DNA of 64,000 bases from Spirochaetota bacterium. Lineage in GTDB: Bacteria > Spirochaetota > UBA4802 > UBA5550. Shown here one piece after another: positions 2,671-33,240 of this stretch. The stretch is from assembly GCA_024276015.1 (NCBI GenBank), contig JAJRXZ010000004.1, positions 20,216 through 84,215 of the forward strand. Reading direction: 5' to 3'. The translations under genes and the position numbers were made by a program. The notes beneath the pieces are model-generated. The model was given only the letters and a program-made list of their open reading frames with translations. It searched no databases and had not been told where the DNA came from. How positions within the stretch are numbered: the stretch's first letter is position 1; every line of letters starts with the position of its first letter.

Positions 2671-2705
2671 AGAGAGGCTGTCTTTCACGCAGCCTCTCTT
2701 TATTA
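2671..2705 (+). terminator. intrinsic terminator after groEL
   Basis: 10-bp stem AGAGAGGCTG (2671-2680) / CAGCCTCTCT (2690-2699) with a 9-nt loop, followed by a T-rich run. Confidence 0.7.
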
Positions 2706-2843
2706 TGAAAATTAAAGCAGTAATCCCGCCTTTTTGGAATATCTCAAATTACCCCATTTTATAGATTAATAATTAATTCCCTTATACCGATGATTATGAC
2801 AGGGATTTTTACTGAATCTTAATATTTAAGGCATATAATAAGT

Positions 2844-3743
2844 ATGGACAGAGTAAAGGAAGAGAGCAGAAAATTGATCATACGGAATAGATTGAGGGAT
2901 CCCTACAGTTTTGAAGATATTCTGGGAATTAAGGATATAATAATTGAGAGAATAAAAGAGATCGATTTTTCGAGAGTGACCTTTATAGAACCATATTCCA
3001 TGCTTTCTCTGCTTCTTTTGGGCAGAATTTTTCTCAGAAGCCGCGGCGAGAAACTCAGAATTATCAATATACCGGTAAATATTCATCAATATCTGGCCAG
3101 AATGGATTTTCTGAAAACAGGGATGTATGATATCCCTGAGAGATTAAATGAAAGACTTTTTTTGAAAAGAAGCGCCTTCAGCTCTCGTGTAATAGAAATA
3201 ACCGAGATCCCCAATAAAGAGGTGGAAAGCATTAAAGTAATTTCGGAAATTATTGAGTTGTTCAGAAAGAGAGCCAGACATATCCTTAAGTACTGGATGT
3301 CCGATGTTATAATTGACCTCTTTGTTACTGTTATTTCGGAATTATGCCAAAATATCTTTGAGCACAGTCTGGATTCGGGATTTCTTGCAATTCAGACTTA
3401 TTCGCTTGGCCGGGAGAATATACTGAGGGTTGTAATTTCCGATTCCGGTATCGGTATTGAAAAAAGTTTTGATGAAAGATCGGATATTAAGTATGATTCG
3501 TCCGCCAAGTTAATTGAAATGGTGCTCACCACTCCGATTTCAAGTAAGCGTAAATTCGGTTACGGACTCTGTCAGGTTAACGCAATTGTGGAAAAATTAA
3601 AGGGAACAATTTTTATACGGTCAGGTAACGCTTCCGTAACCGGTTTATATCATAAGAAGACCAAAGGTTCGGCATATATGTTCTTAAAAAATAACCTGAG
3701 TTATTTTGAAGGTACTCAGATATCAATAACGCTGTCCGGATAA
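2844..3743 (+). CDS. STAS-like N-terminal domain fused to a GHKL (HATPase_c, RsbW/SpoIIAB-like) ATP-binding domain
   Basis: N-terminus IDFSRVTFIEPYSMLSLLLLGR...RIINIPVNIHQYLARMDFLK is STAS-like. C-terminus carries an N-box-like ELCQNIFEHS, a G1-like ISDSGIGI and a G2-like FGYGLCQV. Confidence 0.7.
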   Translation: MDRVKEESRKLIIRNRLRDPYSFEDILGIKDIIIERIKEIDFSRVTFIEPYSMLSLLLLGRIFLRSRGEKLRIINIPVNIHQYLARMDFLKTGMYDIPERLNERLFLKRSAFSSRVIEITEIPNKEVESIKVISEIIELFRKRARHILKYWMSDVIIDLFVTVISELCQNIFEHSLDSGFLAIQTYSLGRENILRVVISDSGIGIEKSFDERSDIKYDSSAKLIEMVLTTPISSKRKFGYGLCQVNAIVEKLKGTIFIRSGNASVTGLYHKKTKGSAYMFLKNNLSYFEGTQISITLSG

Positions 3744-3755
3744 GGGCGGGGGAAG

Positions 3756-4307
3756 ATGTATATTAATATAAAGAAAATTGCAGAAGAATTAGAAATAAAC
3801 AGATCGGATCTGATCGCAAGATTAAACGGGCGTTTGATCTATCAGAAGGCTTTAAAAATTATTGAAAATATTAATAGAGGCGAAACAGTAATTCTGGATT
3901 TTCAGGGTATAAGGGTTGTGGATTCGTCTTTTATTGATGAATTTATTATCAATCTTATAAAGAGGTCTATTGACAGTTCCAAAGATTTTTATATTAAACT
4001 TAAAAATCTTTCCAAAACAATTGAAATTAATATTGACTCTGTATTGAATACATATTTTAATTATAACAATGAGAAGATCGCCGTCCTTACTGAAGAAATT
4101 TGTTTGAACAATAATTTTTTCATTGGACCTCTTAATGATATTGAAAAGGATATTATCAATTATTTAAGGGTGAACAGATCGGGAGCTTTAAGTGATCTTG
4201 AAGATTTTACAGGTTTAAACAGGGGAATCCTGAAAGAAACAATGGACTTCTTATGTAAAATTAAACTTGTAAAGAAAGATCGCAAAGATCTATTCAGCTC
4301 TCTCTAA
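3756..4307 (+). CDS. DUF4325 (STAS-like) domain protein with a probable C-terminal winged-helix
   Basis: VILDFQGIRVVDSSFIDEFIINL matches the DUF4325 signature as I recall it. The tail INYLRVNRSGALSDLEDFTGLNRGILKETMDFL looks like a wHTH. It starts 13 nt after the previous gene. Confidence 0.6.
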   Translation: MYINIKKIAEELEINRSDLIARLNGRLIYQKALKIIENINRGETVILDFQGIRVVDSSFIDEFIINLIKRSIDSSKDFYIKLKNLSKTIEINIDSVLNTYFNYNNEKIAVLTEEICLNNNFFIGPLNDIEKDIINYLRVNRSGALSDLEDFTGLNRGILKETMDFLCKIKLVKKDRKDLFSSL

Positions 4308-4402
4308 GTTTAAAATCTGTAGTTTTTTTCAATAAAAAGTGATCATTTCTTGATCATATTGTTAAAAGACCGGTTAAGTTTAATTATATTTGAATATTAC
4401 AA

Positions 4403-4876
4403 ATGAAAGGACTTGCAAGGAAAGTAAAATCGAAAAAAAAGGATGAATATCTCTTCGGATTGTTAGCATCTTACAAATCGAATCATACATATATAAAGAT
4501 CCTTGAGTCCGAAGAGAAGGGGCTTATTGCCCTTTTTTTAACCGATAATCCGAAGAATTGGTCCAATGTTCCTGAAGATAAATTCAGCAGTTACCGGGAA
4601 TTAAGGCGGCTGGAAATTGGCGCTGATAAATTGTCCCTGAAGTTCCTTCTTCCTGAACAGATCGTAAGGATCAGAGGCCCCTTATTAAACATAAAGATTC
4701 CCCCGGGAAAAGTCGAGATCATTAATAGCCTTAGCGAGGGCGGGTTTTATATTCTTGAAGCTCCGGTTAAATACAAACAGAAAATCTTAATTGGTGTGAA
4801 TAAAATTTTAAACTTAAGCCCCCAGAAAAAGTACGAGATTATCGAAAAGTGTTTAGCTGAGAGCCAGGAATTATAA
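4403..4876 (+). CDS. hypothetical protein (157 aa)
   Basis: Long ORF co-directional with its neighbours. The stop lies 1 nt before the next start. No motif recognised. Confidence 0.55.
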   Translation: MKGLARKVKSKKKDEYLFGLLASYKSNHTYIKILESEEKGLIALFLTDNPKNWSNVPEDKFSSYRELRRLEIGADKLSLKFLLPEQIVRIRGPLLNIKIPPGKVEIINSLSEGGFYILEAPVKYKQKILIGVNKILNLSPQKKYEIIEKCLAESQEL

Positions 4877-4877
4877 A

Positions 4878-5921
4878 ATGTCAGAACAGTATAACTCTTT
4901 AAACGAAAAAACGAAATTGATTGATCTGTCCCTTAAGTATACCGGCGGAGATATGAACAAAGCCAAAGCCATGGCTTCGGGACAGTATCTTGACGTTATT
5001 GTTGTTGCCGGAAAGTTTGCAGTTGAAGAAACGGGACAGTCCGGGATGTTTTTTATCAGCGTTAATACATTTGACGAATATATTGCAAAAGTATTCACTT
5101 TGTTGAAAGATGATCCCGGTCTTTTTGACAAAGTGAGGATCTTTGACGATTGGAAATCGCTTTATAATGACGCTCTCTTTTATTCAAAGGAACCGGATAC
5201 TGTTAATTCCGATCAGTTAAGCGATCACATCCTTGACTCGAGTATCAGTACGGATATTTTTGCCGAGGTTCAGGACGAAGATCTGGCCGGTCTCATAAGA
5301 AAGATAAACAGTATGCTTCAGAATTATTTTAATGTGCCTTCGGTTCTATGTCAGATCAATCTGAATAAGACCAGCTCCCTCGCTATGGAGCTTGCAGGTA
5401 TAACCATTGATGTTCCTGAAAGAGAAGCCCCTGAAGAGGAAAAACCGGAAGAGCATATTGAAGAAATTATAACCGAAGAAGATAAAAGAATAAGAAAGAT
5501 TGAAGAAGAAGCAAATTATATTGTGAACGGGTCTATCATTGTATCTCCGGTTTCCGGGAAGTATATTAATGATATTGAAATTGGTGAAATGATCAAAGTG
5601 ATTTTACCCGGGAAAGATCCGGTAACCAGAAAACTGATTGACGTTCTCAATGCAAAGAATGAAGAAGGGGAAATTAGGCCCGTAAAAGGAAGGCTTAAGG
5701 CAAAAGTGCCTCTTGAGAAGAGCGGATATATACTTTATACGCTCATAGCAAAGGGAGTTCTTGCAAAAATAGTTGAAGAGGAGAATGTCAAGATCCAGAT
5801 TGAAGCCGGTGTTAAAGAGATACAGAAGGAGAGTAAAAGGGACAGCAGGCTTCTCTTAATGCTGGCAATCCTGATTGGCCTGGTTATTGTTGCAGGAATA
5901 ATTCTTATTAATGTACTGTAA
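4878..5921 (+). CDS. hypothetical tail-anchored membrane protein with a UBA-like N-terminus and an acidic linker
   Basis: N-terminal LKYTGGDMNKAKAMASG resembles a UBA/EF-Ts-N fold motif. Acidic stretch EREAPEEEKPEEHIEEIITEED. C-terminal TM LLLMLAILIGLVIVAGIILINVL. Confidence 0.6.
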   Translation: MSEQYNSLNEKTKLIDLSLKYTGGDMNKAKAMASGQYLDVIVVAGKFAVEETGQSGMFFISVNTFDEYIAKVFTLLKDDPGLFDKVRIFDDWKSLYNDALFYSKEPDTVNSDQLSDHILDSSISTDIFAEVQDEDLAGLIRKINSMLQNYFNVPSVLCQINLNKTSSLAMELAGITIDVPEREAPEEEKPEEHIEEIITEEDKRIRKIEEEANYIVNGSIIVSPVSGKYINDIEIGEMIKVILPGKDPVTRKLIDVLNAKNEEGEIRPVKGRLKAKVPLEKSGYILYTLIAKGVLAKIVEEENVKIQIEAGVKEIQKESKRDSRLLLMLAILIGLVIVAGIILINVL

Positions 5922-6840
5922 CGGTAAAGTGTTTCGGTCCTGTTTAACTTCTGCATGCCTCATCATATTGCTGCAATTTGCATCCCCTCTGATGTCTCAA
6001 ATGCCGGAATGGAAATTCTACAGAGACAGAGACGGCAATACATATTATATCGACAGGAGCGGTAAGATACGCACATCTGGTAAACCCGAATTTAACTTCA
6101 AACCCGTTTCACCGCAGGGAATCGATTATTATCTTAATCATGCAGAGCAATTATTAAAGGGGCATTATAAAGTTGAAGGGTTAATACTGCTGAAATCGAT
6201 TCTTGCTCTGCCTGTCAGTAACAACAGGGTCTATAAAGCCCAGACTGAAGCTGCCAAAAGAATAAATTATATTAAAAAAAGGGAAGGCGGCAGATTCAAC
6301 GGATTGAATGAAATGGCTTCTCTGATGCTTATTAAGAATAGCGGGAACACTGTTGTCATAAACGACAATATGTTTTATTCAATAGAAATTCCCGGCACTG
6401 CGGCTATTCTGAGGTCAAGGTTCAGGAAGAGACCCTATTACAGATATCACGGCTTGCTGATAGGTATAAATTTAAAAAAGAGCTTAAGTCTTTCTTCGGG
6501 CACTGATCCGAAATTCGATCTTCTCCTTGCCGTGGACAGTGAAAGATATTCGGTATCACTGAAAAGTATAAAGAGGGTTGTGAATAACTGGCGCACAAAT
6601 CTCGGTTTTGAAAATATATCGAGAGAGGAGGTTAAAAAGGATCGGAATAGCTATATCCTCAGATTTTATAAAAAAGAGAAACCTCTTTTATCCGGTTTTG
6701 AAGGATATTTTTTTAACGGGAAATTCGGGTATATGGTCAGAGCAATTTCTTCAGGAGAAAAATTCACCAAATTTAAGGATAAAATCAGAGATATTATTTT
6801 CAGCTTTAAATTTGTTGAGTTAAAATCTCAAGAGAGATAA
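5911..6840 (+). CDS. hypothetical secreted protein (309 aa)
   Basis: 11-nt overlap with the upstream gene. Hydrophobic N-terminus CLTSACLIILLQFASPLMSQ. No domain recognised. Confidence 0.55.
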   Translation: MYCNGKVFRSCLTSACLIILLQFASPLMSQMPEWKFYRDRDGNTYYIDRSGKIRTSGKPEFNFKPVSPQGIDYYLNHAEQLLKGHYKVEGLILLKSILALPVSNNRVYKAQTEAAKRINYIKKREGGRFNGLNEMASLMLIKNSGNTVVINDNMFYSIEIPGTAAILRSRFRKRPYYRYHGLLIGINLKKSLSLSSGTDPKFDLLLAVDSERYSVSLKSIKRVVNNWRTNLGFENISREEVKKDRNSYILRFYKKEKPLLSGFEGYFFNGKFGYMVRAISSGEKFTKFKDKIRDIIFSFKFVELKSQER

Positions 6841-11609: not shown

Positions 11610-11658
11610 TATACCGATCGTTATTGAGAATTTCCATATTAAATGAATCGGTATATGA
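11610..11658 (+). repeat. conserved upstream element, copy A (module 1 only)
   Basis: TATACCGATCGTTATTGAGAATTTCCATATTAAATGAATCGGTATATGA is identical over 49 nt to 14688-14736. 9-bp inverted arms TATACCGAT/ATCGGTATA. It ends 19 nt before the ATG at 11678. Confidence 0.9.
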
Positions 11659-11677
11659 CAATAATTAAAGAGGAATT

Positions 11678-12907
11678 ATGGCTGATATAAGTGCATTCAG
11701 AGGATTACGACCCAAGAAGGATCTGGCAAAAGATGTTTCGGAATTGCCCTATGATGTGGTGAGCAGAAGTGAAGCAAAAAAGATTGCTGAAAACAATGAA
11801 TACAGTTTCTTCCATATTACGAGACCTGAAATTTCTATGTCCGATGATACCGATCCCTATCATGAAAGCGTTTACCAAAAGGGAAAGGAAAATCTCCATA
11901 GGTTTATAAGAGATAAAATACTTATTAAGGATGAAACACCGAAATTATATCTATATACCCAGATAATGAATGAGCGTGAGCAGACCGGACTTGTTGCCTG
12001 TGTAAATATTGATGATTATATAAACAATAATGTTAAGAAGCATGAATTGACCAGAGAAGACAAAGAGAGAGACAGAACAAGGCACCTTGATATTCTGAAT
12101 GCAAATACGGGACTTGTATTTTTACTCTATCGTGAAGACGGATCAAAAAAAGGTCTCTTTGAAAGAGCCAAAGCTGAAGAGCCCGAATACGATTTCGAAA
12201 CCGATGACGGAATACGTCATATTGTAAGAGTAATAAATGATGAAGATCTGATCAAATCTTTTGAAGAAAGTTTTGCAGAAAATACTCTTTTTATTGCGGA
12301 CGGACATCACAGAGCGGCGTCTGCGGTCAATGTGGGGCTAATGAGGAGAAAAAGGGAGAAAAATTTTACAGGAAAGGAAGAGTATAACCGTTTTCTTGCA
12401 GTAATATTTCCTCATGATCAGTTGAAGATCTTACCATACAATAGGGTTGTGAGGGATCTATGCGGCTTAAATACCGAGGATTTTATATCGAAAATTTCCG
12501 GCAGATTTGTTGTTAACCGGAACGGTGTGAAAGTTCCGGGAAGCAAGAGATCCTTTTCAATGTATATTGAGGGCCGGTGGTATTCGCTGGTCTACACCGG
12601 CAGTATGGAAGGAGATACTGTGGATAAACTTGATGTGAGGATCCTTCAGAAGAATATTCTTGAACCGCTGCTTGGAATTAAAGATCCCAGAACTGATAAA
12701 AGAATAAATTTTATCGGTGGTATCAGAGGTGTTGATGAACTGGAAAAACTTGTAGATTCGGGACAATACAGGGTTGCTTTTTCTCTTTATCCTACCTCTG
12801 TTGAGGAATTAATGGCTGTTGCTTCAGAAGAAGGCATTATGCCTCCCAAATCCACCTGGTTTGAACCGAAATTGAGAAGCGGTTTGTTTATTCATCTTTT
12901 AAGCTGA
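11678..12907 (+). CDS. DUF1015 domain-containing protein
   Basis: 409 aa. N-terminus SAFRGLRPKKDLAKDVSELPYDVV and internal ADGHHR fit the DUF1015 family pattern as I recall it. Confidence 0.75.
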   Translation: MADISAFRGLRPKKDLAKDVSELPYDVVSRSEAKKIAENNEYSFFHITRPEISMSDDTDPYHESVYQKGKENLHRFIRDKILIKDETPKLYLYTQIMNEREQTGLVACVNIDDYINNNVKKHELTREDKERDRTRHLDILNANTGLVFLLYREDGSKKGLFERAKAEEPEYDFETDDGIRHIVRVINDEDLIKSFEESFAENTLFIADGHHRAASAVNVGLMRRKREKNFTGKEEYNRFLAVIFPHDQLKILPYNRVVRDLCGLNTEDFISKISGRFVVNRNGVKVPGSKRSFSMYIEGRWYSLVYTGSMEGDTVDKLDVRILQKNILEPLLGIKDPRTDKRINFIGGIRGVDELEKLVDSGQYRVAFSLYPTSVEELMAVASEEGIMPPKSTWFEPKLRSGLFIHLLS

Positions 12908-14687: not shown

Positions 14688-14790
14688 TATACCGATCGTT
14701 ATTGAGAATTTCCATATTAAATGAATCGGTATATGATTTAAGCAGGATTTTGCCCTTTGCCAAGGGATAAAATATAGGCTTTTTGATATA
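14688..14790 (+). repeat. conserved upstream element, copy B (modules 1+2+3)
   Basis: Module 1 is identical to copy A. It is followed by CAGGATTTTGCCCTTTGCCAAGGGATAAAAT (hairpin) and GGCTTTTTGATATA. It ends 37 nt before the ATG at 14828. Confidence 0.9.
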
Positions 14791-14827: not shown

Positions 14828-15970
14828 ATGTGCCGATTAGCTTTAAAAACATCATCAACACCATTTTCACCTTACAGCGTTCTGGAAGCCATGGAAGCAA
14901 TGCAGGAAGGGTATGACGGAAGCGGACTTGGTCTTCTTCTGCGCGGTCTTGAATTTTTAGATTATAATTATCAGACCAAAGACCCTATTTTCTCAGGCAT
15001 TGCCCATACCCATGAAGCTTTAAACCGCCTTGATTCATTTATGCAGGAGAAGGGGTTTACTTTAAAGTATGATCATGAGTTCAATGTTGATCATTCAAAG
15101 GTGGAAGCCCCTGACAGATATAAATATCTTCTCCGTATATACAATTTTCCTGAAATATGGAAAGATTATGATAAAGACAGGATCGAACATGAATTAATGA
15201 TGACCCGCCTTGAATTAAGAAGGGATGGAGAGAATCATAATGGAGACCTTACGCTTTTTTCTTTCTGGCCCGAGGTTGTTATTATTAAAGAGGTTGGCTG
15301 GCCTCTGGGCATTGGGGATTCCCTTGGTCTGTCTGATAACAGAATAAAGGCAAGACTGGTAATGGCTCAGGGCAGGCAAAATACAAACTGGGGCATTAAT
15401 CTGTATGCATGCCATCCCTTTTTCCTTCAGGGTGTTTCCACAATGACAAATGGTGAAAATACAGCCTTTATTCCTATTAAAGAATGGCTTATGGGCGTGC
15501 AATTTCCCGGTTATATAGGCTACCAGAGCGACAGTGAAGTATTTACGCATATTTTACATTATACTATTAAAAAGCTGAAACTCCCGCTCGAAGTTTATAA
15601 ACACATTATCACTCCGCTGAAAACAGAGGAGCTGTTAGATCATCCTCAGGGAGATTTTCTAAGAGGCTTGCGGGATGTAACCAGAAAGCTGATCATTGAC
15701 GGGCCCAATTGTGTTATAGGGTCTTTACAAGATGAAACATGTTTCATGGTAATGGACCACAAGAAATTACGTCCCGGTACAGTGGGCGGAAAAGAAGGCG
15801 AATGGGCAATGGCTTCCGAGATGTGCGGCGTTGACGCAATGATTCCCGAAAGGGACCGTTCCCTCGATTTTCAGCCAATGCGAGAGAACATGGTAATAAT
15901 ATCCCCAGACCGAAAGGAGTATAAGATATGGTCACAATTCGATCCATACCCTCAACACCGGGTAGCCTGA
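14828..15970 (+). CDS. glutamate synthase, class-II glutamine amidotransferase subunit (archaeal-type GltB domain 1)
   Basis: Begins MCRLA, with the Cys2 nucleophile of Ntn amidotransferases. It heads an operon with the FMN and GXGXG subunits. Confidence 0.75.
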   Translation: MCRLALKTSSTPFSPYSVLEAMEAMQEGYDGSGLGLLLRGLEFLDYNYQTKDPIFSGIAHTHEALNRLDSFMQEKGFTLKYDHEFNVDHSKVEAPDRYKYLLRIYNFPEIWKDYDKDRIEHELMMTRLELRRDGENHNGDLTLFSFWPEVVIIKEVGWPLGIGDSLGLSDNRIKARLVMAQGRQNTNWGINLYACHPFFLQGVSTMTNGENTAFIPIKEWLMGVQFPGYIGYQSDSEVFTHILHYTIKKLKLPLEVYKHIITPLKTEELLDHPQGDFLRGLRDVTRKLIIDGPNCVIGSLQDETCFMVMDHKKLRPGTVGGKEGEWAMASEMCGVDAMIPERDRSLDFQPMRENMVIISPDRKEYKIWSQFDPYPQHRVA

Positions 15971-17565
15971 CATACACTGATCTTCCATGGATAATCAATC
16001 ATATTGAAGATAGATGCACACTGTGCGGGAAATGCACTTCGGTTTGCCCCACTTCCGCAATATATCTCGGTTACAGACGACAGAGAATCCCGCAGATCGA
16101 TATTTATAATAAAGACAGAAAAACATCCTACAGAACATTTGCGGGCATAAGGCAGAGGCTTGACGTAGAGCACAGATGCATCGGGTGCGGTATGTGTTCC
16201 ATGGTTTGCCCCAATGAGGCAATAACTCCTGTCTTAAACTCAAATGACGACAGGCTCAAGTTTCATATACATCAGGGCGGCGATGCGTGGAAACGAGGCG
16301 GGAGAAGAAATAGCAGGGAATCTTTGCTGGACAATATTATTTTTACGAGGATCTCAATGCTTACAGACCCGGCGCTTGATGCCGGCAGGCATGAATTCTA
16401 TCTAAACACAATTCTGGGACGAATTCTCTCTCCTGAGGAATATCTGAAGAGGAAGGAAAAGGGCCAATGGATACCCCCCACAAGGGAGATTTTCCCCTTT
16501 ATTATAGGCTCTATGTCATTCGGCGCAATGTCTCCCAATATGTGGCTTGGCCTTCTGCAGGGCGTTGCATACTGCAACGAGGTGCTTGGCATTCCCGTTG
16601 TTATGGCAACGGGCGAGGGAGGGTGTCCCCCGTGGGTTTTAAAAAGCCCCTTCCTTAAGTATATTATACTGCAGATCGCATCAGGTTATTTCGGATGGGA
16701 CGAGATAATCAGGGCTATTCCCGATATGCAGTGCGACCCTGCGGCAATTGAAATAAAGTACGGGCAGGGCGCAAAACCGGGCGACGGCGGACTTTTAATG
16801 TGGTATAAGGTGAGTAAACTCATTGCCCGTCTCAGGGGCGTTCCGCAATCCGTTGATCTGCCTTCGCCTCCGGTACATCAGACGCTCTATTCCATAGAGG
16901 AGAGTGTTATGAAAATGATCCAGTCTCTGTCAATGGCATGGGGGTTCAGAGTGCCTGTATATCCCAAAATATCCGGTTCCAATTCTGCAAAATCGGTACT
17001 TAATAATCTTGTCAGAAATCCCTATGCTTCGGCTCTGTTGATAGACGGAGTAGACGGAGGAACCGGAGCAGCCTATAATGTAAGTATGGATGCAATGGGT
17101 TATCCCATAGCTTCAAATCTCAGAGAGTGTTATCTTGATCTTGCTGCTCAGGGAAAACAGAATGAGATCCCCCTCTTTGCCGCAGGCGGAGTGGGCAAGA
17201 ACGGAAATGTAACGCAAAACGGTATGGCTCTGATCATGCTTGGCGCAAGCGGCGTTCATATCGGCAAATATGTGATGCAGTCTATAGCAGGCTGCCTTGG
17301 AAGTGAAAGGAACAGATGCAATGTATGCAACTTGGGCATTTGCCCCAAAGGTATAACGAGCCAAAATCCGAAGCTCTACAGACGTCTTGATCCGGATCAG
17401 GTAGCTCAGAGAGTAGTCGATGTCTTCCAGGCAATCAGAACGGAGATGAAGAAGATCATGGCGCCGCTTGGAAGGTCTCAGAGTCTTCCTATCGGTATGA
17501 GCGATGCTATTGGGATAAACGATAAGGCAGCGGCGGATAAGTTGAAAATAAATTATATATGTTAA
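15928..17565 (+). CDS. glutamate synthase FMN/2-oxoglutarate subunit (GltB domain 2) with an N-terminal 2x[4Fe-4S] ferredoxin domain
   Basis: CTLCGKCTSVCP and CIGCGMCSMVCP, then the GltS FMN-domain pattern (IKYGQGAKPGDGG, LLIDGVDGGTGAA). RBS GGAG before the ATG at 15928. It overlaps the previous gene by 43 nt. Confidence 0.85.
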   Translation: MVTIRSIPSTPGSLTYTDLPWIINHIEDRCTLCGKCTSVCPTSAIYLGYRRQRIPQIDIYNKDRKTSYRTFAGIRQRLDVEHRCIGCGMCSMVCPNEAITPVLNSNDDRLKFHIHQGGDAWKRGGRRNSRESLLDNIIFTRISMLTDPALDAGRHEFYLNTILGRILSPEEYLKRKEKGQWIPPTREIFPFIIGSMSFGAMSPNMWLGLLQGVAYCNEVLGIPVVMATGEGGCPPWVLKSPFLKYIILQIASGYFGWDEIIRAIPDMQCDPAAIEIKYGQGAKPGDGGLLMWYKVSKLIARLRGVPQSVDLPSPPVHQTLYSIEESVMKMIQSLSMAWGFRVPVYPKISGSNSAKSVLNNLVRNPYASALLIDGVDGGTGAAYNVSMDAMGYPIASNLRECYLDLAAQGKQNEIPLFAAGGVGKNGNVTQNGMALIMLGASGVHIGKYVMQSIAGCLGSERNRCNVCNLGICPKGITSQNPKLYRRLDPDQVAQRVVDVFQAIRTEMKKIMAPLGRSQSLPIGMSDAIGINDKAAADKLKINYIC

Positions 17566-17619
17566 GATGTTTCAGTATGCTGTTTGATAAAAGGGTTTAT
17601 AAAGAGAGGAGACAGATAA

Positions 17620-19953
17620 GTGAAGGGCATAACCGAAGATTATATAACAATTAAAGGGGTTGATGACAAGGGCAAACGTATCAGTTCCAAAGATTATGAA
17701 GATATGGTGCAGGATGCCTTGAAGAGATCCAACAGGCTGATACTCTGGACCAAGGGGCAGCACAATGTTGGCGGACGTCTCAGGCATGAATCGGGCTCTG
17801 TTTTTATAAGAGTGAAAGGTCCTGTGGGCCAGCGGCTGGGATGTATGGGCCAGCCCGGCACAACAATTATCTGTGAAGGGCAGGCCTCCGACGATGTGGG
17901 ATATCTCAATATCGGAGCGGATATTGTTATTCTTGGAGATGCAACCAACGGAGTTTGTAATGCTACTGCCCAGGGCAGGGTGATGGTGCGCGGTTCAATC
18001 GGTTCCAGAGGCCTCACAATGACTAAGTGGAATCCCGATTATAAAAGGCCCGAACTATGGGTTCTCGGTTCCGTAGGGGATACCTTTGCAGAATTCAACT
18101 GCGGTGGAATTGCCGTTGTGTGCGGAATTAACCCGAAAAATCCGGATAATATTCTGGGATACCGCCCCTGCGTTGGAATGGTAGGCGGAACAATATTCTA
18201 CCGCGGAAAAACCGACAATACATACTCCGGAAATGATGTACGCCTTTCAGAACCGAATGACGAGCAGTGGCAGTGGCTTGTTTCACAGATGCCCCAATAT
18301 CTTGAAACCATTGAACGAAGCGATCTTTTAGAGGAGTTAACGGTTCGTGAAGAGTGGAAAGTTCTTGAAGCCATTCCCCCTCAGGAAAAATCACTGAGGC
18401 GCAGCGGGACCATGACCATTGAGGAGTTCAGGATAAAAGTATGGGAGAAGGCTTTCGGAGGCGACCCGCTTCGTGATCTTGCGCCGGGACTTGACCGTGA
18501 ACCTATCGGTTTAATTGAATCGGGCGATTTAAGGCGGAAAGTGCCCTTCTGGGCAAACAGGCAGTCTGCTGCGCCCTGTACATATTATTGTCCTGCGCAT
18601 ATACCCACTGTTGATCGTCTCAGACTTATCAGAGAGGGCAAGCTGGACCAAGCTTACCGGCTGACCCTGAATCATACTCCTTTCCCTGCATCGGTTTGCG
18701 GTTCCATCTGCCCCAATCTCTGTATGTCCAACTGTTCGAGACAGCGTGTTGACAAAAGCATTGATATTGCCCTTCTGGGGCGTTCTGTTCAGAATGCAGA
18801 GGCTCCTGAACTTAAGCCGCCCACCGGTAAAAAGGCGGCAATTGTGGGCGGAGGACCTGCAGGCTTAAGCGCTGCATGGCAGCTTGCTCTTGCAGGAGTT
18901 GAAGCTCATATCTTTGAGAAGGATAATAAGCTGGGCGGAAAAATGGCGCAGGTCATTCCCTGGGAAAGGCTGCCAAGGGCTGTCTGGGATGCAGAGCTTG
19001 AAAGATTATTGAAATTACCCGGTATTCATGTTAATTACGGCGTGAATATGACAAAGGATAAAATAGAAGAGTTAAAAAATAATTTTGATTATGTGATTGT
19101 CGCGGTTGGGGCGCATGAACCTCGCAGGATCCCCTTCCCCGGTTCGGAGAGGGTAATTGCAGGCCTTGATTTCCTGAAGTCTGCCAAATCTGACAATCCC
19201 ATGAAAGTTGGTAAAAAGGTAGTTGTTATAGGAGCCGGTAATGTGGGATGCGATGTTGCCTGTGAGGCATACCGCCTTGGAGCGGATGATGTAACATTGA
19301 TTGATATACAGAAACCTCTTTCCTTCGGCAAGGAGAGAGAAGCGGCAGAGAGGCTTGGAGCCAAATTCCGCTGGCCCGCTGTGACTAAAGAAGTAACGGA
19401 TGAAGGGGTACTCCTTGCCGACGGCGGTTTTATCCCGGCTGATACGGTGATAATTTCTATAGGAGATGTTCCGGCTCTCGATTTTCTGCCGGAGACTGTT
19501 GAAACAATAAAAGGATTGATTAAAACCGGCGAGGCGGGAAACACATCGGATAGTAAGATCCTTGCAATAGGCGATGTGGAAAAACCGGGGCTTGTAACCG
19601 ACGCTCTCGGCAGCGGTAAAAGAGCCGCCGAGTATGTTATAAGTTCATTAAACGGCAGAGAGTGGAAATCATTTAAGATCCCTGTAATTCAGCAGAGCGC
19701 TTTAACTGTTGAGCATTACTGCCCCGATAATAATACGCTGTCTGAGGACGGCGAGGCAGACAGGTGTCTCAGCTGCGGTTCATGCCGCGACTGCGGTTTG
19801 TGTGTTGACATCTGTCCCACTGCTGCAATAAGCAGGATCGACCTAAGTGACGGGCAGTATGAATATAGATCGGATGATGACAAATGTATCGCCTGCGGAT
19901 TCTGTTCGGATACATGCCCCTGCGGTATCTGGATCATGCAGGAGTTCGAATAG
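17620..19953 (+). CDS. fusion of the glutamate synthase GXGXG domain (GltB domain 3), a GltD-like NAD(P)H oxidoreductase and a C-terminal 2x[4Fe-4S] ferredoxin
   Basis: GTG start after GAGGAG. GXGXG beta-helix repeats (GQRLGCMGQPGTTIICEGQASDDVGYL...). GltD-type Cys cluster (VCGSICPNLCMSNCSR), dinucleotide fold AIVGGGPAGLSAA, and CLSCGSCRDCGLC / CIACGFCSDTCP. Confidence 0.85.
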   Translation: MKGITEDYITIKGVDDKGKRISSKDYEDMVQDALKRSNRLILWTKGQHNVGGRLRHESGSVFIRVKGPVGQRLGCMGQPGTTIICEGQASDDVGYLNIGADIVILGDATNGVCNATAQGRVMVRGSIGSRGLTMTKWNPDYKRPELWVLGSVGDTFAEFNCGGIAVVCGINPKNPDNILGYRPCVGMVGGTIFYRGKTDNTYSGNDVRLSEPNDEQWQWLVSQMPQYLETIERSDLLEELTVREEWKVLEAIPPQEKSLRRSGTMTIEEFRIKVWEKAFGGDPLRDLAPGLDREPIGLIESGDLRRKVPFWANRQSAAPCTYYCPAHIPTVDRLRLIREGKLDQAYRLTLNHTPFPASVCGSICPNLCMSNCSRQRVDKSIDIALLGRSVQNAEAPELKPPTGKKAAIVGGGPAGLSAAWQLALAGVEAHIFEKDNKLGGKMAQVIPWERLPRAVWDAELERLLKLPGIHVNYGVNMTKDKIEELKNNFDYVIVAVGAHEPRRIPFPGSERVIAGLDFLKSAKSDNPMKVGKKVVVIGAGNVGCDVACEAYRLGADDVTLIDIQKPLSFGKEREAAERLGAKFRWPAVTKEVTDEGVLLADGGFIPADTVIISIGDVPALDFLPETVETIKGLIKTGEAGNTSDSKILAIGDVEKPGLVTDALGSGKRAAEYVISSLNGREWKSFKIPVIQQSALTVEHYCPDNNTLSEDGEADRCLSCGSCRDCGLCVDICPTAAISRIDLSDGQYEYRSDDDKCIACGFCSDTCPCGIWIMQEFE

Positions 19954-26447: not shown

Positions 26448-27533
26448 TTAAGGCGTCCTTGTAAAGATTTTCTTTATACAATGGATCAACATGCGGTTGC
26501 TCTTCCTGTCCTTTACTGCGAGCCGGATAAATGAATCGTCAAGATATGCGAAATTTGACGCATCCCTGATCAGAATATTTTGTTTCAGCAATTTCTCTTT
26601 CAGTTCGTACGATTTTGTTCCGCATAATATTTTCACAAGAATAAAATTTGTTTCCGAATCGTATGTTTTGAGCTGTTCTATTTTTTTCAGGCTGCCGATC
26701 AAGAATTGTTTCTCTTTTTTTATCAGTGCAAGCGAATTTTCAGCATATACGCTGTTGTTAAGGAGGATTTTTGAGGATAAGTCGGCAAGAATGTTTACTG
26801 TCCATGGCTCTTTTATCGATTTTATCTTCCTGATAAATTCTCTGTTAAAGTTTATGCAGTAACCCAGCCTCAGTCCCGGTATTGCAAAAAATTTTGTAAA
26901 GGATCTGATTATAAAAAGGTTATGATAGGCAGGTGCAAGTTTCATTGAAGACCTTTCTCTCCAGCCTTCAATGAATTCGATAAATGATTCATCAATAATA
27001 AAAAGGGTATTTTTATTTTGGGCACAGAATAAGAGTTCCTGAACTATATTTATATTTGTAAAGGTTCCTGTTGGATTATTGGGGCTGCAGATGTAAATTA
27101 AATCGTAGTTTTTAGATATTTCTTTTAGAATTTTTTTAAGGTTTATTTTGAAATCTTCTTCGTTTAATTTGAAATAATTTATTTCTGTGCCGGTATGTTT
27201 TAGTGAGAGAGCGTATTCTGAAAAGCACGGCGCAATGATCAGCGCCCTTTGCGGCTTAAATACCCTTGGAAGAAGGTATATAAGTTCTGCAGCTCCGTTT
27301 CCGGGAACAATAGTTTCGGGATCAATATTATTATAGCGGGCAATATTTTGAGTCAAATCCGCATAATCGGGATCAGGGTAGTTTTTGATTTTATCGATGT
27401 TTTTTATTAGCGTCTGTTTTAGTTCCGGAGGCAGACCCAGAGGATTAATATTTGAGCTGAAGTCGAGTATATCTTCTTTTTTTATGTTATAATCTCTTTC
27501 GATTCTATAAATGTTGCCGCCGTGGGTATCCAT
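26448..27533 (-). CDS. cobD: threonine-phosphate decarboxylase (CobD, aminotransferase class I/II fold)
   Basis: N-terminus HGGNIY...ILDFSSNINPLG, and position at the end of the cob operon. Confidence 0.8.
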   Translation of the reverse strand: MDTHGGNIYRIERDYNIKKEDILDFSSNINPLGLPPELKQTLIKNIDKIKNYPDPDYADLTQNIARYNNIDPETIVPGNGAAELIYLLPRVFKPQRALIIAPCFSEYALSLKHTGTEINYFKLNEEDFKINLKKILKEISKNYDLIYICSPNNPTGTFTNINIVQELLFCAQNKNTLFIIDESFIEFIEGWRERSSMKLAPAYHNLFIIRSFTKFFAIPGLRLGYCINFNREFIRKIKSIKEPWTVNILADLSSKILLNNSVYAENSLALIKKEKQFLIGSLKKIEQLKTYDSETNFILVKILCGTKSYELKEKLLKQNILIRDASNFAYLDDSFIRLAVKDRKSNRMLIHCIKKIFTRTP

Positions 27534-27542
27534 CTTTTTTAT

Positions 27543-28472
27543 TTATAGTACACTGTTTATTGTAAAGGAAATAGTTAAGCCCGTTATTAACGCTGTTATT
27601 GCCGTTGCATACGTCAGCTTTATGCTTCTTAAGATGTCATTTTTAATCAAAGTTGTTTCGGAGCGGCCTATTACCGGTTTTTTTACGGTGTTTCCGAAAT
27701 ATACGGCATCACCGCCAAGCCTGCAATTGAGCGCTCCTGCAAAGGCGGCTTCGGGATGCGCCGAATTGGGACTTGAGTGATTCAGCCTGTCTCTGCGAGC
27801 GGTCTTTAGGCTGTTTTTATGATCCATACCGCAGAAAAAGGCGGCCGCAGGGATGAGAAAAAAGGCGCTTATTCTTGCCGGTAAAAAATTCATTATATCG
27901 TCCAGTTTTGCTCCTGCCATACCGAAATTAATATATTTATCGTTTTTATATCCGATCATTGAATCTATTGTGCTGACAGCTTTATATGTCATTGCAAGGG
28001 GCGCGCCTCCGATAAATAAATAGAAGATGGGGGAGACAACGGCGTCCACAACATTTTCGGCAACCGTTTCAATTGTTGCTTTCAGAATTTCTTCCTCGTC
28101 CAGTTTGTCCGTATCCCTGCTGACAAGGGTACTTAAGTGTTTTTTGGCTTCGTCGATTTTATTGTTTTCTAATAAAGTGTAAACTCTTCTTGCTTCAACT
28201 GAAAGCGACTTTACGGCAAGGATTGTATATATTAACAGGATTTCCAGAATTAGAGACAGGGATGAGATCAAATGAGCAGTTATATATGAAGAGGAAGTTA
28301 CAATAAGAACCAGTATAATTCCCGCAGTCTTTTGAGAACCCATTTTTATCAGTTTTTTTTCAAGGAATAAGATCAGCTTTCCCATAAGTTTAACCGGGTG
28401 GGGAAAACCGTAAGGGTCTCCCAATATGATATCAAGAACGAATCCCGCTGTTATTTTAAGAGCTGGCAGCAC
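27543..28472 (-). CDS. cbiB: adenosylcobinamide-phosphate synthase CbiB
   Basis: Polytopic membrane protein. DIILGDPYGFPHPVKLMG is the typical CbiB N-terminus. Confidence 0.88.
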   Translation of the reverse strand: MLPALKITAGFVLDIILGDPYGFPHPVKLMGKLILFLEKKLIKMGSQKTAGIILVLIVTSSSYITAHLISSLSLILEILLIYTILAVKSLSVEARRVYTLLENNKIDEAKKHLSTLVSRDTDKLDEEEILKATIETVAENVVDAVVSPIFYLFIGGAPLAMTYKAVSTIDSMIGYKNDKYINFGMAGAKLDDIMNFLPARISAFFLIPAAAFFCGMDHKNSLKTARRDRLNHSSPNSAHPEAAFAGALNCRLGGDAVYFGNTVKKPVIGRSETTLIKNDILRSIKLTYATAITALITGLTISFTINSVL

Positions 28473-29958
28473 CGGCTTGATCCATTATTTTATATATTTT
28501 GTCAATATCAATTGACTTTCTCAAAGTGTGTGCCAACCTGTTGAATTCCTTCTCCTTCTCTTCGTTAACAGATGTGAACTTCTTTACAGGTTCAAGGCCT
28601 TTTTGGGCCCTTATGTTGTTCAGGAGCCCCCTTGTAAATTTCTGGTTGTCAAAAATGCCGTGTATATATGTGCCCATAATATTCTCGTGTGCAATTCCGC
28701 TGATTCTGTTGTTTATTCTGATAAAGCACCTGTTTTCAATGCTGCCCCTGCTGATCCCCATGTGGATTTCGTATCCCTTGATCTCAGCTCCAATGAGGCC
28801 CTTTAAAATCCCGGAATTCATTTCAACAGAACCTTTTACCTGTTCCGTTAATTTTTTCTTTTCAAGTATGGTGTCCATTTCTATAAAGCCCAGCCCGCTG
28901 ATCTGTCCAACTGAGCTTTCAACGCGGTGAGGATCCCTTATTGACCTGCCCATCATCTGATATCCTCCGCATATACCGATTATCAGTTTGTTCAGATTAT
29001 GGTGTCCAATGATTTTATCTGCAATTCCGTTTTCCTTAATTACCCTAAGGTCTTCAATTGTATTCTTTGTCCCCGGGATTATTATTATGTCGGGATTTTC
29101 AATATCTTCGGCTTTTTCAATAAATTTAAACTTAACATCTTCAAAAAGCCTGAAAACGTCAAAATCGGTAAAATTTGAAATGTGAGGCAGCCTGATGATA
29201 TCAATTTCAATATCGCCCTTTCCCTCCCTTGGATTGAATCTCTCGGTTACGCTGTCTTCGTCTTCAAGATTGATATCGATATATGGAACAACACCGAGTA
29301 CCGGGATCTTGATTATATCTTCGAGCATAGTTAAACCGGGCTTTAATAGCTCAATATCGCCTCTGAACTTGTTTATGATGACTCCCTTAACTCTCTCTCT
29401 TTCGCGGTCATTTAAAAGAAGCATAGTTCCTGCAATTGATGCAAAAACTCCGCCTCTGTCAATATCGGATACCAGAATAACCGGCGAATCTGCAATCTCA
29501 GCCATACCCATATTGACAATATCATTATCTCTCAAATTTATTTCAGCGGGGCTTCCGGCTCCCTCAATAACAATTATATCAAATTTTTCTGCAAGACTTT
29601 TATAGGCCTCAGTTACGATTGTTTTTGCTTTGCTCTTATATTCATGGTACCCGGCAGCGGTCATGTTTTTATAGACAATCCCATTAAGTACAACCTGAGC
29701 ATTTCTATGGCCTGTGGGTTTTAACAGAATGGGGTTCATCAGGGAGGAGGGCCGGAGCCTGCAGGCCTGAGCCTGTACAACCTGAGCCCGTCCCATCTCA
29801 TGTCCCTCGGATGTAACAAAAGAGTTCAGCGACATATTCTGAGATTTGAATGGAGCCACCGCATATCCGTCGCTGCAGAATATTCTGCAGAGTCCTGCAG
29901 TTATAATGCTTTTGCCAACTGAAGAGGCGGTTCCCTGGATCATAATATTCCTGGTCAC
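28456..29958 (-). CDS. cobQ: cobyric acid synthase CobQ/CbiP
   Basis: IMIQGTASSVGKS P-loop, a CobQ-type amidotransferase C-terminal domain (ICGGYQMMG) and 500 aa length. Confidence 0.92.
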   Translation of the reverse strand: MTRNIMIQGTASSVGKSIITAGLCRIFCSDGYAVAPFKSQNMSLNSFVTSEGHEMGRAQVVQAQACRLRPSSLMNPILLKPTGHRNAQVVLNGIVYKNMTAAGYHEYKSKAKTIVTEAYKSLAEKFDIIVIEGAGSPAEINLRDNDIVNMGMAEIADSPVILVSDIDRGGVFASIAGTMLLLNDRERERVKGVIINKFRGDIELLKPGLTMLEDIIKIPVLGVVPYIDINLEDEDSVTERFNPREGKGDIEIDIIRLPHISNFTDFDVFRLFEDVKFKFIEKAEDIENPDIIIIPGTKNTIEDLRVIKENGIADKIIGHHNLNKLIIGICGGYQMMGRSIRDPHRVESSVGQISGLGFIEMDTILEKKKLTEQVKGSVEMNSGILKGLIGAEIKGYEIHMGISRGSIENRCFIRINNRISGIAHENIMGTYIHGIFDNQKFTRGLLNNIRAQKGLEPVKKFTSVNEEKEKEFNRLAHTLRKSIDIDKIYKIMDQAGAASS

Positions 29959-29962
29959 AGAG

Positions 29963-31003
29963 CTACATTCCTATATCGGCAAATGTTCCCATACGGTTCA
30001 TCATTTCAGTTGCAGCTTCAACAATGTTAAAGGCAAGCGCACAGCCAGTGCCTTCTCCCAGCCGCATATTCATTTTCAGCATTGGTTCAATGCCCAGTAT
30101 TTTCATAATTATTTTAGCGCCCGGTTCTTCACTGACATGAGATCCCATCATAAAGAATTTTGCTTTGGGGTTGATCTTTACTGCCGCAACTGCGGCAGCT
30201 CCGGAAATAAACCCGTCAATTACTATGGGTACTCTTCGCGCCGCTGCTGCAAGGAAACATCCCGTAAGGCCCGCAATGTCAAATCCTCCCACTTTGGACA
30301 GAACGTCAATTGCATTGTCAGGGTCCGGCTTATTTATCTTGACTGCGGTTTTTACAATCTCTTTTTTGCGTTCAAGCCCCTCGTCGTCAAGGCCTGCGCC
30401 CCTTCCGGTCAGTTTGTCCGGATTTTCGCCTGTAAAAGCGTGAAGCACAGCACTGCTGGTTGTTGTGTTTCCGATCCCAACTTCGCCGGTTCCAAGAAGG
30501 TTAACTCCGCTATCTATTGCTTTTTCAGTAATTTCAATTCCTGTTTCTATTGCCTGCACAGCCTCGTCCGCTGTCATGGCAGGTCCTTTTGCTATGTTTG
30601 ACGTTCCATATCTGATTTTTTTATTAATTATTCCCGCTATGGCAATGTCCTTATCAAGGCCCATATCAACAACTACCAGTTCTGAACCGGCATGTCTGGC
30701 AAGAACGGCAACTCCCGATATTCCCGTTGCCATTGTTTGGGCTACCAGATAACTTACGTCTTTAGGGAAAGAACTGATATTCTCCTCAACAACTCCGTTA
30801 TCGGCGCACATCGCGATAATTGCTTTTTTATGGACTCTGTTGAATATTTCACCTGTAATTCCTGAAAGCTGTTTTGCAATTGATTCCAGTTTCCCAAGAC
30901 TGCCGGGAGGTTTCAGCAGATTGTTCAGCCTCTCCTGCGCTTTATCCATAACATCCTCATGTAATGAGCCTATTGATTCGATTGTTTTGTTTAGCTTGTC
31001 CAT
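29963..31003 (-). CDS. cobT: nicotinate-nucleotide--dimethylbenzimidazole phosphoribosyltransferase
   Basis: LLKPPGSLGKLE and GEVGIGNTTTSSA motifs. Confidence 0.92.
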   Translation of the reverse strand: MDKLNKTIESIGSLHEDVMDKAQERLNNLLKPPGSLGKLESIAKQLSGITGEIFNRVHKKAIIAMCADNGVVEENISSFPKDVSYLVAQTMATGISGVAVLARHAGSELVVVDMGLDKDIAIAGIINKKIRYGTSNIAKGPAMTADEAVQAIETGIEITEKAIDSGVNLLGTGEVGIGNTTTSSAVLHAFTGENPDKLTGRGAGLDDEGLERKKEIVKTAVKINKPDPDNAIDVLSKVGGFDIAGLTGCFLAAAARRVPIVIDGFISGAAAVAAVKINPKAKFFMMGSHVSEEPGAKIIMKILGIEPMLKMNMRLGEGTGCALAFNIVEAATEMMNRMGTFADIGM

Positions 31004-31017
31004 AATCTCTCCAGTAA

Positions 31018-31602: not shown

Positions 31603-31603
31603 G

Positions 31604-32359: not shown

Positions 32360-32377
32360 GTAATTCGCTCCTTTGGT

Positions 32378-33014: not shown

Positions 33015-33072
33015 CCCTTTTTTATCTCCGAAACAAATCCCTTCCCCTTTACACGACGGGGCAGGGCTCAAT

Positions 33073-33240
33073 GTACAGGCAGGTCTTCTGGCTTACGGAT
33101 CACTCTACTTGCTGCGCCTTCCCATAAGACTTGATAATGACTTACAGTGGCATTCTGCAGCGTTCGTTCCCGATTACAGCGGCGGGCCCGCACCCGAATT
33201 TCACGGGTTTCACTTTTAATCCCATAATGGGAACCTGTAC
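33073..33240 (-). promoter_or_regulatory. cobalamin (B12) riboswitch aptamer
   Basis: The minus strand reads GTACAGGTTCCC...GGGATTAAAAGTGAAACCCGTGAAATTCGGGTGCGGGCCCGCCGCTGTAA...GTAAGCCAGAAGACCTGCCTGTAC. P1 is GTACAGG/CCTGTAC and the B12 box is AGCCAGAAGACCTGCC. Confidence 0.92.

Follow-up and report, generated by a model that had tools for sequence, protein, structure and literature searches.

We analyzed a 64,000-nucleotide (nt) stretch of DNA from a Spirochaetota bacterium (contig JAJRXZ010000004.1, positions 20,216 to 84,215 of the forward strand; this whole stretch is called the window) and in it a locus of five consecutive open reading frames (ORFs), P1 to P5, of which the first two encode relatives of the CapK/CapS regulators. 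The ORFs and the features that go with them are listed below, with lengths in amino acids (aa) and with HTH and wHTH denoting helix-turn-helix and winged HTH domains.

2671 to 2704, plus strand: hairpin resembling an intrinsic terminator of groEL, AGAGAGGCTG...CAGCCTCTCT followed by TTATT, read from the sequence.
2766 to 2794, plus strand: candidate sigma-28 (FliA)-like promoter, with a -35-like T-TAAT at 2766 to 2770 and a -10-like TATACCGATGAT at 2783 to 2794.
2844 to 3743, plus strand: P1, 299 aa, a predicted HTH-less CapK/VapK-like serine kinase with a STAS-like N-domain (residues ∼1 to 150) and a GHKL domain (∼155 to 299).
3756 to 4307, plus strand: P2, 183 aa, a CapS-like STAS(DUF4325)-wHTH protein and putative phospho-regulated repressor (DUF4325 E 1.8e-8).
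4308 to 4402, plus strand: 95-nt spacer between P2 and P3, a candidate internal promoter/operator.
4403 to 4876, plus strand: P3, 157 aa, a cytoplasmic orphan with conserved D-SLFGLLxxYK and SPQKKYEILEK (alignment A3).
4878 to 5921, plus strand: P4, 347 aa, a tail-anchored cytoplasmic protein with a helical hairpin and alpha/beta N-domain (1 to 175), an acidic disordered linker (183 to 198), a KOW/Tudor/EF-P-domain-I-like beta-barrel (200 to 310), and a C-terminal transmembrane helix (312 to 346).
5911 to 6840, plus strand: P5, 309 aa, a secreted or periplasmic protein with a signal helix (6 to 27), a WW-like beta-hairpin (WxxxxDxxGNxYY), TPR-like helices (68 to 135), and a PsbP/Mog1/DcrB-like alpha/beta domain (138 to 297).

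The locus is one operon that runs from P1 to P5 and starts after the groEL terminator. The hairpin and T-run at 2671 to 2704 separates groESL from the operon; this element was not listed by our pattern scan because its loop is longer than 8 nt. A first-pass annotation made from the letters of this stretch had described a tight five-gene operon with all five ORFs at exactly these coordinates and on this strand, and our analysis agrees with it. The 1-nt gap between P3 and P4 and the 11-nt overlap of P4 and P5 were also as it had given them, but P1 and P2 are 12 nt apart rather than 13; P2 and P3 are separated by 95 nt.

The 2026 description of the CapK/CapS pair presents a mobile controller of immune operons that senses DNA damage; its authors left open a general stress role (Chambers et al., EMBO J 2026, PMC13373217). 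CapK, an HTH-STAS-GHKL protein whose HTH is dispensable, acts on CapS, a STAS-wHTH protein, by phosphorylating a serine where STAS helix alpha-2 begins; once phosphorylated, the CapS dimer dissociates and comes off its palindromic operators, which derepresses the immune operon (CBASS, Bub, Thoeris, and others) (PMC13373217). The activating cue is single-stranded DNA, on which CapK W68 and VapK F54 are aromatic residues proposed to stack, and capKS was found upstream of a known or predicted immune operon in 348 of 443 loci (PMC13373217). The same work reported the CapS structures 9Z71 to 9Z73, the VapS-VapC structure 9Z7O, and VapKSC, a related toxin-antitoxin system with an HTH-less kinase (PMC13373217). 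The spirochaete lineage studied here is absent from the published capKS, vapKSC, and Bub datasets (PMC13373217). On the basis of sequence comparisons, we assign P1 and P2 to this regulator class as true though divergent members, because the P2-family profile matches VapS and CapS and because both proteins have full-length homologues, encoded side by side, in Nostoc. The first-pass annotation had instead taken them for a self-contained partner-switching pair, widespread but uncharacterized. Its second point is superseded by the 2026 publication, and in place of a sigma-type partner-switching module the pair represents a STAS-GHKL kinase/STAS-wHTH repressor class in which the STAS protein would itself be the DNA-binding output.

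The evidence from P2 came from several comparisons. The assignment of this protein as DUF4325/STAS plus a probable winged helix, already made in the first-pass annotation, was upheld by the DUF4325 match and by an alignment of the C-terminal half with the wHTH domain of Vibrio cholerae CapS. A single-sequence search of the PDB gave weak matches to 9Z71 and 9Z72, which are almost identical to P2 in length. When a profile of the P2 family (31 relatives) was compared with the PDB, VapS (9z7o, E 2.2e-4) and V. cholerae CapS (9z72, E 4.2e-3) ranked ahead of all else, and the match to 9z72 covered both the STAS and the wHTH halves. Residues D56, S58, F59, D61, and E62 of P2 (D56-x-S58-F-x-D61-E62) were invariant in 73 species. 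The phospho-serines of CapS (S54), V. cholerae CapS (S58), VapS (S48), and SpoIIAA (S58) directly follow a conserved Asp/Ala, which makes position 57 the canonical site in P2. That position was Ser in 48, Thr in 4, Ala in 9, Pro in 11, and Leu in 1 of the 73 species, and P2 of the window itself reads S57-S58. From these alignments, either the acceptor has moved by one residue in the P2 branch or phosphorylation would not be universal in it.

A tblastn search of 72,556 plasmids with P1 returned one match, on a conjugative plasmid of Nostoc linckia (31.7% identity over 86% of P1, E 6e-22). The matching gene encodes a full-length P1 homologue of 282 aa (hhalign probability 99.9, E 1.7e-36) and the next gene a full-length P2 homologue of 197 aa (hhalign probability 97.2, E 2.8e-11), which aligns end to end with V. 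cholerae CapS (E 0.0022). Both are labeled hypothetical protein in the record (locus L084, N. linckia NIES-25 plasmid2, AP018224.1, positions 90901 to 95935). An MBL-like gene follows and then a 752-aa fusion of Prok-E2_A, ThiF, and Prok-JAB (E2-E1-JAB), so that the layout is the published arrangement of capKS plus an immune operon (PMC13373217). This pair is the closest non-spirochaetal relative of P1 and P2 that we found; its kinase also lacks an HTH, and its CapS-like protein reads D-V-S-F, with the serine at D+2 as in P2. A 377-aa cargo protein of the Nostoc locus was considered as a relative of P3 or P4 and turned out on comparison to be unrelated.

For P1, the GHKL domain is well defined. 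The protein matches HATPase_c at residues 160 to 262 (E 1.9e-8), and all 28 family members matched both HATPase_c and HATPase_c_2, the RsbW/SpoIIAB type (best HATPase_c_2 E 4e-5). Its key residues are E166/N170/H174 in the N-box, D200-S-G-I-G204 in G1, S233-S-K-R236, and G239-Y-G241 in G2. The N, G1, and G2 boxes were invariant in a 28-sequence alignment (A6) and at least 98% conserved across 71 sequences, and the N-box Asn is residue 170 in P1 versus 218 in Enterobacter roggenkampii CapK. The N-domain gave weak Pfam STAS or STAS_2 matches in 6 to 7 of the 28 members (best E 0.009) and a weak hhalign match to the STAS domain of P2 (P = 0.015) in the expected register. It aligned throughout with the Nostoc CapK-like protein (alignment A8), with which it has the motif F-I-x-P-Y in common (F47-I-E-P50-Y51-S52 in P1). 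Homology to CapK-type proteins would therefore support a STAS-like N terminus indirectly, whereas the direct support is weak; the STAS-like plus RsbW/SpoIIAB-like GHKL architecture proposed earlier for P1 is thus firm in its second part and weakly indicated, by direct tests, in its first. Y51 is nearly invariant and lies at about the position of VapK F54 and CapK W68. No domain match indicated an N-terminal HTH in P1, in which the STAS-like motif begins by residue 20, and single-sequence and profile searches of the PDB with P1 gave only weak histidine-kinase matches. P1 is the most conserved of the five proteins: among its 293 database relatives, the best 120 are all 60 to 72% identical, of ∼295 aa, and from uncultivated Spirochaetota, compared with identities of 35 to 59% for P4 and 26 to 47% for P5. 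Between the STAS-like and GHKL domains, the segment IPNKE(R/V)ES..I..VI..FRKRA (residues ∼122 to 141, DNA ∼3207 to 3266) is nearly invariant in spirochaete P1 proteins and has no counterpart in the Nostoc homologue (A8); a possible role is that of an interaction surface specific to the clade.

Compared with CapK/CapS, the locus has the same order, a gene for a predicted STAS-GHKL kinase followed directly by a STAS-wHTH gene at the head of an operon that the pair presumably controls, the same intact GHKL boxes (including N170, the equivalent of CapK N218), and the same acidic, serine-containing loop at the start of STAS helix alpha-2. It differs in that P2 has its invariant serine at D+2 instead of D+1, the spacer between P1 and P2 (median 11 nt) is too short for a separate capS promoter, the promoter is sigma-28-like, and the unit is not mobile: it belongs to the vertically inherited core genome, and its P3-P5 cargo is fixed, non-immune, and clade specific. 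VapK has the HTH-less STAS-GHKL layout that is predicted for P1, no PDB entry matches the P2 profile better than VapS, and P1 Y51 may correspond to VapK F54, the aromatic residue after STAS strand beta-3. The locus differs from VapKSC in having no PIN/VapC toxin (P3 gave no PIN match) and in the full wHTH of P2, in place of which VapS has a short C-terminal inhibitory helix. The SpoIIAB-SpoIIAA and RsbW-RsbV pairs resemble P1-P2 in combining a HATPase_c_2-type GHKL kinase with a STAS substrate, and a loop of the D-S-S type is likewise kept; they differ in that the locus lacks a cognate sigma factor or PP2C, the predicted kinase has a STAS-like domain of its own, and the STAS substrate, presumed to be the output itself, carries a fused DNA-binding domain.

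We then consider how the unit is inherited. The first-pass annotation had proposed gene-neighborhood analysis as a check, and the downstream genes proved to be syntenic with P1 and P2. A scan with a P4 alignment, using one genome per GTDB species, yielded 77 loci, all in spirochaetal metagenome-assembled genomes (MAGs) labeled Spirochaetota or Leptospirales. The order P1-P2-P3-P4 was kept in every locus that was long enough, among these 77 species loci and 80 metagenome contigs, all of them spirochaetal (∼70 species genomes and ∼70 contigs showed it), and the order groES-groEL-P1-P2-P3-P4-P5 was seen on three divergent contigs. This synteny far exceeds chance. Median gaps among the relatives were 11 (P1-P2, 71 loci), 50, 3, and 10 nt. 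P5 follows P4 in 64 loci; the P4-P5 gap exceeds 150 nt in 17, at least 12 of the relatives inspected have an opposite-strand Fis-like gene between P4 and P5, and one subclade has no P5 beside P4. The Fis-like HTH gene (∼75 aa, ...NWNLQKTSRVLDIARNTLKAKIKKY..) between P4 and P5 is a feature of one subclade and is on the minus strand, for example in L028 (10039 to 10266), L038 (10066 to 10347), L041 (10064 to 10294), and L064 (10048 to 10260), and the same gene also follows P4 in L056 and L063, in which P5 is missing. GroESL precedes the operon only in a closer subclade, and a GNAT-SPOR gene pair lies 3' of it in most loci. No mobile-element genes were found near the unit across ∼70 species, and PADLOC gave no convincing match for the five proteins, the only one being DrmA for P1 at 12.6 bits. 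Because gene order and chromosomal position are fixed across the lineage, we conclude that the unit is an old, vertically inherited core operon and not a defense island; the suggested enrichment near defense or stress islands was not seen. A metagenome scan with a Nostoc-led alignment, based on one peptide pattern, yielded hardly anything but the spirochaete family and revealed no further cargo types.

The three downstream proteins look like a module associated with the envelope, one part being cytoplasmic, one anchored in the inner membrane, and one periplasmic. P3 is an orphan restricted to the clade: it had no match in Pfam, NCBIfam, PADLOC, or a PDB profile search, and its alignment showed no obvious catalytic residues. 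Among 1.84 billion cluster representatives it has 35 relatives, which are stand-alone proteins of ∼150 to 160 aa or shorter fragments, with one exception (P0295, 1700 aa, E 4.2e-4) that is probably spurious. For P4, an AlphaFold2 model confirmed the acidic linker and the C-terminal membrane helix described in the first-pass annotation, but its UBA-like N terminus was not supported, the model having only a two-helix hairpin there, without Pfam support. P4 aligns over its full length with the Leptospira LIC10486 model NF047678 (E 1.3e-15, 57.4 bits), a score far below the family cut-off of 500, and it reaches 15.1 bits against DUF4899 (PF16240), for which the cut-off is 25; a precomputed DUF4899 match was present in 3 of 120 listed P4 relatives. 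Judged by these scores, P4 is only a distant relative of LIC10486/DUF4899. LIC10486 itself has been reported only as a seroreactive hypothetical protein (PMC3798601), and the literature that mentions LIC10483 and LIC10486 gives neither a function nor a gene context. A paralogue of P4 (28% identity) stands alone, without P1-P3, at L081 (8476 to 10050), in the MAG that also contains L038. The gene directly before it encodes a single-domain CheY-like receiver (Response_reg, E 2.5e-25); the alternative that this upstream ORF is a P3 paralogue was thereby ruled out. The signal peptide proposed for P5 was supported by its N-terminal hydrophobic helix (residues 6 to 27) and the conserved AQ|MPDW junction that follows. 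Its C-domain superposes structurally on PsbP/Mog1/DcrB-like (DUF1795-type) family members at identities of 7 to 14%, and P5 differs from these in its added WW-like hairpin and TPR-like helices.

Expression of the unit was examined through its upstream and internal noncoding sequence. CCGAT occurs at 2787 to 2791, 57 nt before the ATG of P1, and a forward CCGAT lies within 200 nt 5' of P1 in 43 of 69 loci, compared with 9 on the reverse strand and with a mean of 7.6 (maximum 16) in shuffles. The logo anchored on it reads T-Y-A-A-N16-R-CCGAT-n-A-T, with the T at -21 in 47 of 53. The motif fits the sigma-28 consensus (-35 TAAA, ∼15-nt spacer, -10 GCCGATAA) in elements and spacing; the comparison promoter, Pseudomonas aeruginosa fliC, has a -10 of GCCGATAA and a -35 of TCTAAAG (PMC12784957). 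On this resemblance, the motif 5' of P1 is probably a FliA-type promoter. No flagellin or flagellar gene was present in the fetched loci as a positive control for sigma-28. In a position weight matrix scan with the motif, most of the recovered sites were those on which the matrix had been trained; the scan also picked out the SPOR gene in three loci. The SPOR-domain gene has, 66 nt 5' of it, a sigma-28-like site close to consensus, TTCTTAAAG-N14-GCCGACAAT, in L042 and L046 (12075, minus strand), and an identical TTCTTAAAG-N14-GCCGACAAT site in L052 (6695, minus strand) was paired with no ORF by the scan. These sites hint at a possible co-regulation of the SPOR gene with the operon in some genomes.

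The P2-P3 spacer contains a direct repeat, TGATCA-N5-TGATCA (4340 to 4356), that overlaps a CTTGATC -35-like box, and a TTAA-N8-TTAA at 4362 to 4377. Among 36 relatives with a spacer of at least 60 nt, CTTGA[TC] was found in forward orientation in 17 and in reverse in 2 (shuffle mean 1.8, maximum 5), and it was combined with a correctly spaced TATAAT-like -10 in 9 (shuffle mean 0.04). These counts point to a putative internal sigma-70-type promoter between P2 and P3 in many relatives, at the same position as capKS promoter 2; its presence in the window itself is uncertain because the -10 is weak.

The first-pass annotation had also taken the region 5' of P1 for a decayed copy of a dispersed repeat. 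The strings on which it relied, TATACCGAT (2783 to 2791) and TGAATCTTAATAT (2813 to 2825), are present, and the resemblance is real (left arm 9/9, right arm 10/13 after a 3-nt shift). The repeat family is real as well, with four ∼80-bp copies on the plus strand at 11610 to 11690, 14688 to 14770, 33446 to 33525, and 43295 to 43375. Each has a 9-bp terminal inverted repeat, TATACCGAT...ATCGGTATA, spaced by 28 nt, with the consensus TATACCGATCGTTATTGAGAATTTCCATATTAAATGAATCGGTATATGAT..CAGGATTTTGCCCTTTGCA, and the copies lie 65 to 150 nt 5' of plus-strand genes (a DUF1015 gene, the glutamate synthase operon, a multihaem cytochrome gene, and mcp-cheW, respectively). The decayed-copy origin did not hold up, however: because CCGAT is conserved in the clade and the 80-bp repeat is absent from related loci (0/83), the P1 motif is better taken as an older functional element, most likely a -10 box of the sigma-28 type. 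A search of the whole window with Rfam found no family at the operon or the repeats, and an RNA-element reading of the P1 upstream motif was dropped since the repeat copies and the P1 leader folded no better than shuffles. Candidates for the nature of the 80-bp repeat are a MITE-like element, an operator, or a promoter cassette.

We somewhat favor, by analogy with the published system, a CapK/CapS-type switch in which P2 represses and P1 phosphorylates the STAS loop of P2, leading to expression of P3-P5. Unphosphorylated P2 would dimerize through its STAS domain and bind operator DNA through its wHTH, holding down the downstream genes and possibly the whole operon. P1 would sense a cytoplasmic cue in the groove between its STAS-like and GHKL domains; the kinase, activated by this cue, would phosphorylate the serine at the start of STAS helix alpha-2 of P2, either S57 or the invariant S58; the P2 dimer would then dissociate and leave the DNA, and P3-P4-P5 would be made. 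Basal transcription would come from the sigma-28-like promoter 57 nt 5' of P1; many relatives also have the putative sigma-70-like P2-P3 promoter. The output would be a clade-specific envelope module of cytoplasmic P3, tail-anchored P4, and periplasmic PsbP/DcrB-like P5, which may form a physical complex.

Several observations weigh against this switch model. The resemblance of P2 to the experimentally studied CapS and VapS is detectable at the profile level only, P1 differs from CapK in lacking the N-terminal HTH, and the reported DNA-contact residues of CapS (N145, K151, and G169-G170; PMC13373217) are not recognizably conserved in P2. The canonical serine position is Ala, Pro, or Leu in 21 of 73 species, so phosphorylation, if it occurs, may use S58 or may not be universal. 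In 26 relatives at most 20 nt lie between P2 and P3, which leaves no room for a separate cargo promoter; therefore P3 would be co-transcribed with P2 there. The window has TTAATAATTAA (2766 to 2776) as a TTAA-type palindrome candidate, but CapS-type TTAA palindromes were not convincingly enriched, the observed counts being reached by 12 to 16 of 300 shuffles 5' of P1 and by 33 to 78 of 300 in the P2-P3 spacer. In addition, the cargo never varies, which suits co-working proteins at least as well as a regulator and its cargo.

This constancy bears on the main rival reading, an integrated signaling system, in which P3-P5 would be the input side, reporting the state of the envelope to P1, and P2 would be the output, acting on genes elsewhere. 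In contrast to the modular CapKS, P1-P4 are always inherited together in ∼150 loci and no other cargo is seen. P1 is very highly conserved, and the loci with short spacers have no room for a P2-P3 promoter. The fold of P5 is common to extracytoplasmic sensor (PknH-sensor-like) and envelope-homeostasis proteins, and the P4 paralogue adjoins a CheY-like receiver gene. We nevertheless regard such a system as unlikely. P4 is tail-anchored with essentially no periplasmic residues and therefore cannot contact P5 across the membrane by itself; P5 is loosely linked, being separated from P4 by the Fis-like gene in at least 12 relatives and missing next to P4 in one subclade; and there is no sequence evidence tying P3 or P4 to P1.

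Classical partner switching would make P1 an RsbW/SpoIIAB-type anti-sigma factor, directed against a sigma factor encoded elsewhere (possibly FliA, in view of the promoter), and P2 its antagonist, with the wHTH as an accessory. HATPase_c_2 is indeed matched by all 28 P1 relatives, P2 has the STAS fold of anti-sigma antagonists, and the sigma-28-like promoter would allow a feedback loop. However, no sigma factor, PP2C phosphatase, or single-domain STAS gene was found among the neighbors or the scanned ORFs of at least 150 aa in the 64-kb window, and the first-pass annotation had likewise noted that no sigma factor or PP2C is adjacent. The closest relatives are moreover CapK/CapS and VapS, whose STAS protein carries the output, and neither the STAS-like domain of P1 nor the conserved wHTH of P2 is found in RsbW/RsbV pairs. 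We judge this arrangement quite improbable. Least probable of all is a domesticated defense or abortive infection system, with P3-P5 as a toxic effector module (e.g. acting on the membrane) released on phage-induced DNA damage, in the manner of CBASS, Bub, or VapKSC under CapKS control: characterized relatives of the regulator pair mostly precede immune operons (the 348 of 443 capKS loci and the Nostoc locus) and P4 and P5 are membrane or envelope proteins of no assigned function, but the 12.6-bit DrmA match of P1 is unconvincing, P3-P5 have no PADLOC or Pfam defense matches, the chromosomal position between groESL (in closer relatives) and the GNAT-SPOR pair is fixed in ∼70 species, the G+C content (34 to 40% at 3 to 7 kb) is within the range of the window (30 to 51%), and the 60 to 72% conservation of P1 is typical of housekeeping and not of fast-evolving defense genes.

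The locus is a divergent branch of the CapK/CapS class, HTH-less and with a shifted serine, that is fixed in the core genome of an uncultivated spirochaete lineage, always with the same three uncharacterized, non-immune envelope genes and with a flagellar-type promoter motif; this combination is new. Because the branch is fixed, non-immune, and preceded by a flagellar-type promoter motif, it provides a concrete test case for a housekeeping role of the CapK/CapS switch. A further question that it poses is whether a phospho-acceptor can be displaced by one residue, and it defines three conserved protein families, P3, P4, and P5, one of them distantly related to a seroreactive Leptospira antigen family. 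A more speculative proposal, which we advance with low confidence, is that P1-P5 form a previously unrecognized, lineage-wide stress or motility-linked system in which a CapK/CapS-type switch, elsewhere known only as a portable regulator of anti-phage operons, was permanently recruited and came under a flagellar-type sigma factor. The switch may couple a cytoplasmic cue (DNA damage or another) to a new trans-envelope module of P3, tail-anchored P4 (with a fold not seen in the PDB), and periplasmic PsbP-like P5. If true, the system would be a new envelope machine and the first case of this regulator class in a housekeeping role.

The surroundings of the operon are those of an ordinary chromosome. 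On its 5' side lie moaC, groES, and groEL (groEL at 968 to 2611), and on its 3' side, on the opposite strand, are genes for a GNAT acetyltransferase and a SPOR-domain protein followed by serA, serC, and rex. The remainder of the 64-kb window encodes a split glutamate synthase, nadE, a cobalamin operon with a riboswitch, a multihaem cytochrome, mcp-cheW, two-component systems, and leucine catabolism genes. The glutamate synthase is of the split, archaeal type and consists of three ORFs at 14828 to 19953 (plus strand). Its second and third ORFs carry Fer4 plus Glu_synthase and GXGXG plus pyridine-nucleotide oxidoreductase domains, respectively, and the first (380 aa, unannotated) would, judging by its sequence alone, be the amidotransferase part. 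The riboswitch, a cobalamin riboswitch (RF00174, 118 bits) at 33061 to 33253 on the minus strand, was the one family found in the Rfam search of the whole window and lies 5' of a minus-strand cobalamin salvage/biosynthesis operon (26448 to 32938) with cobU, cobS, a cobC-like gene, cobT, cbiP/cobQ, and cobD.

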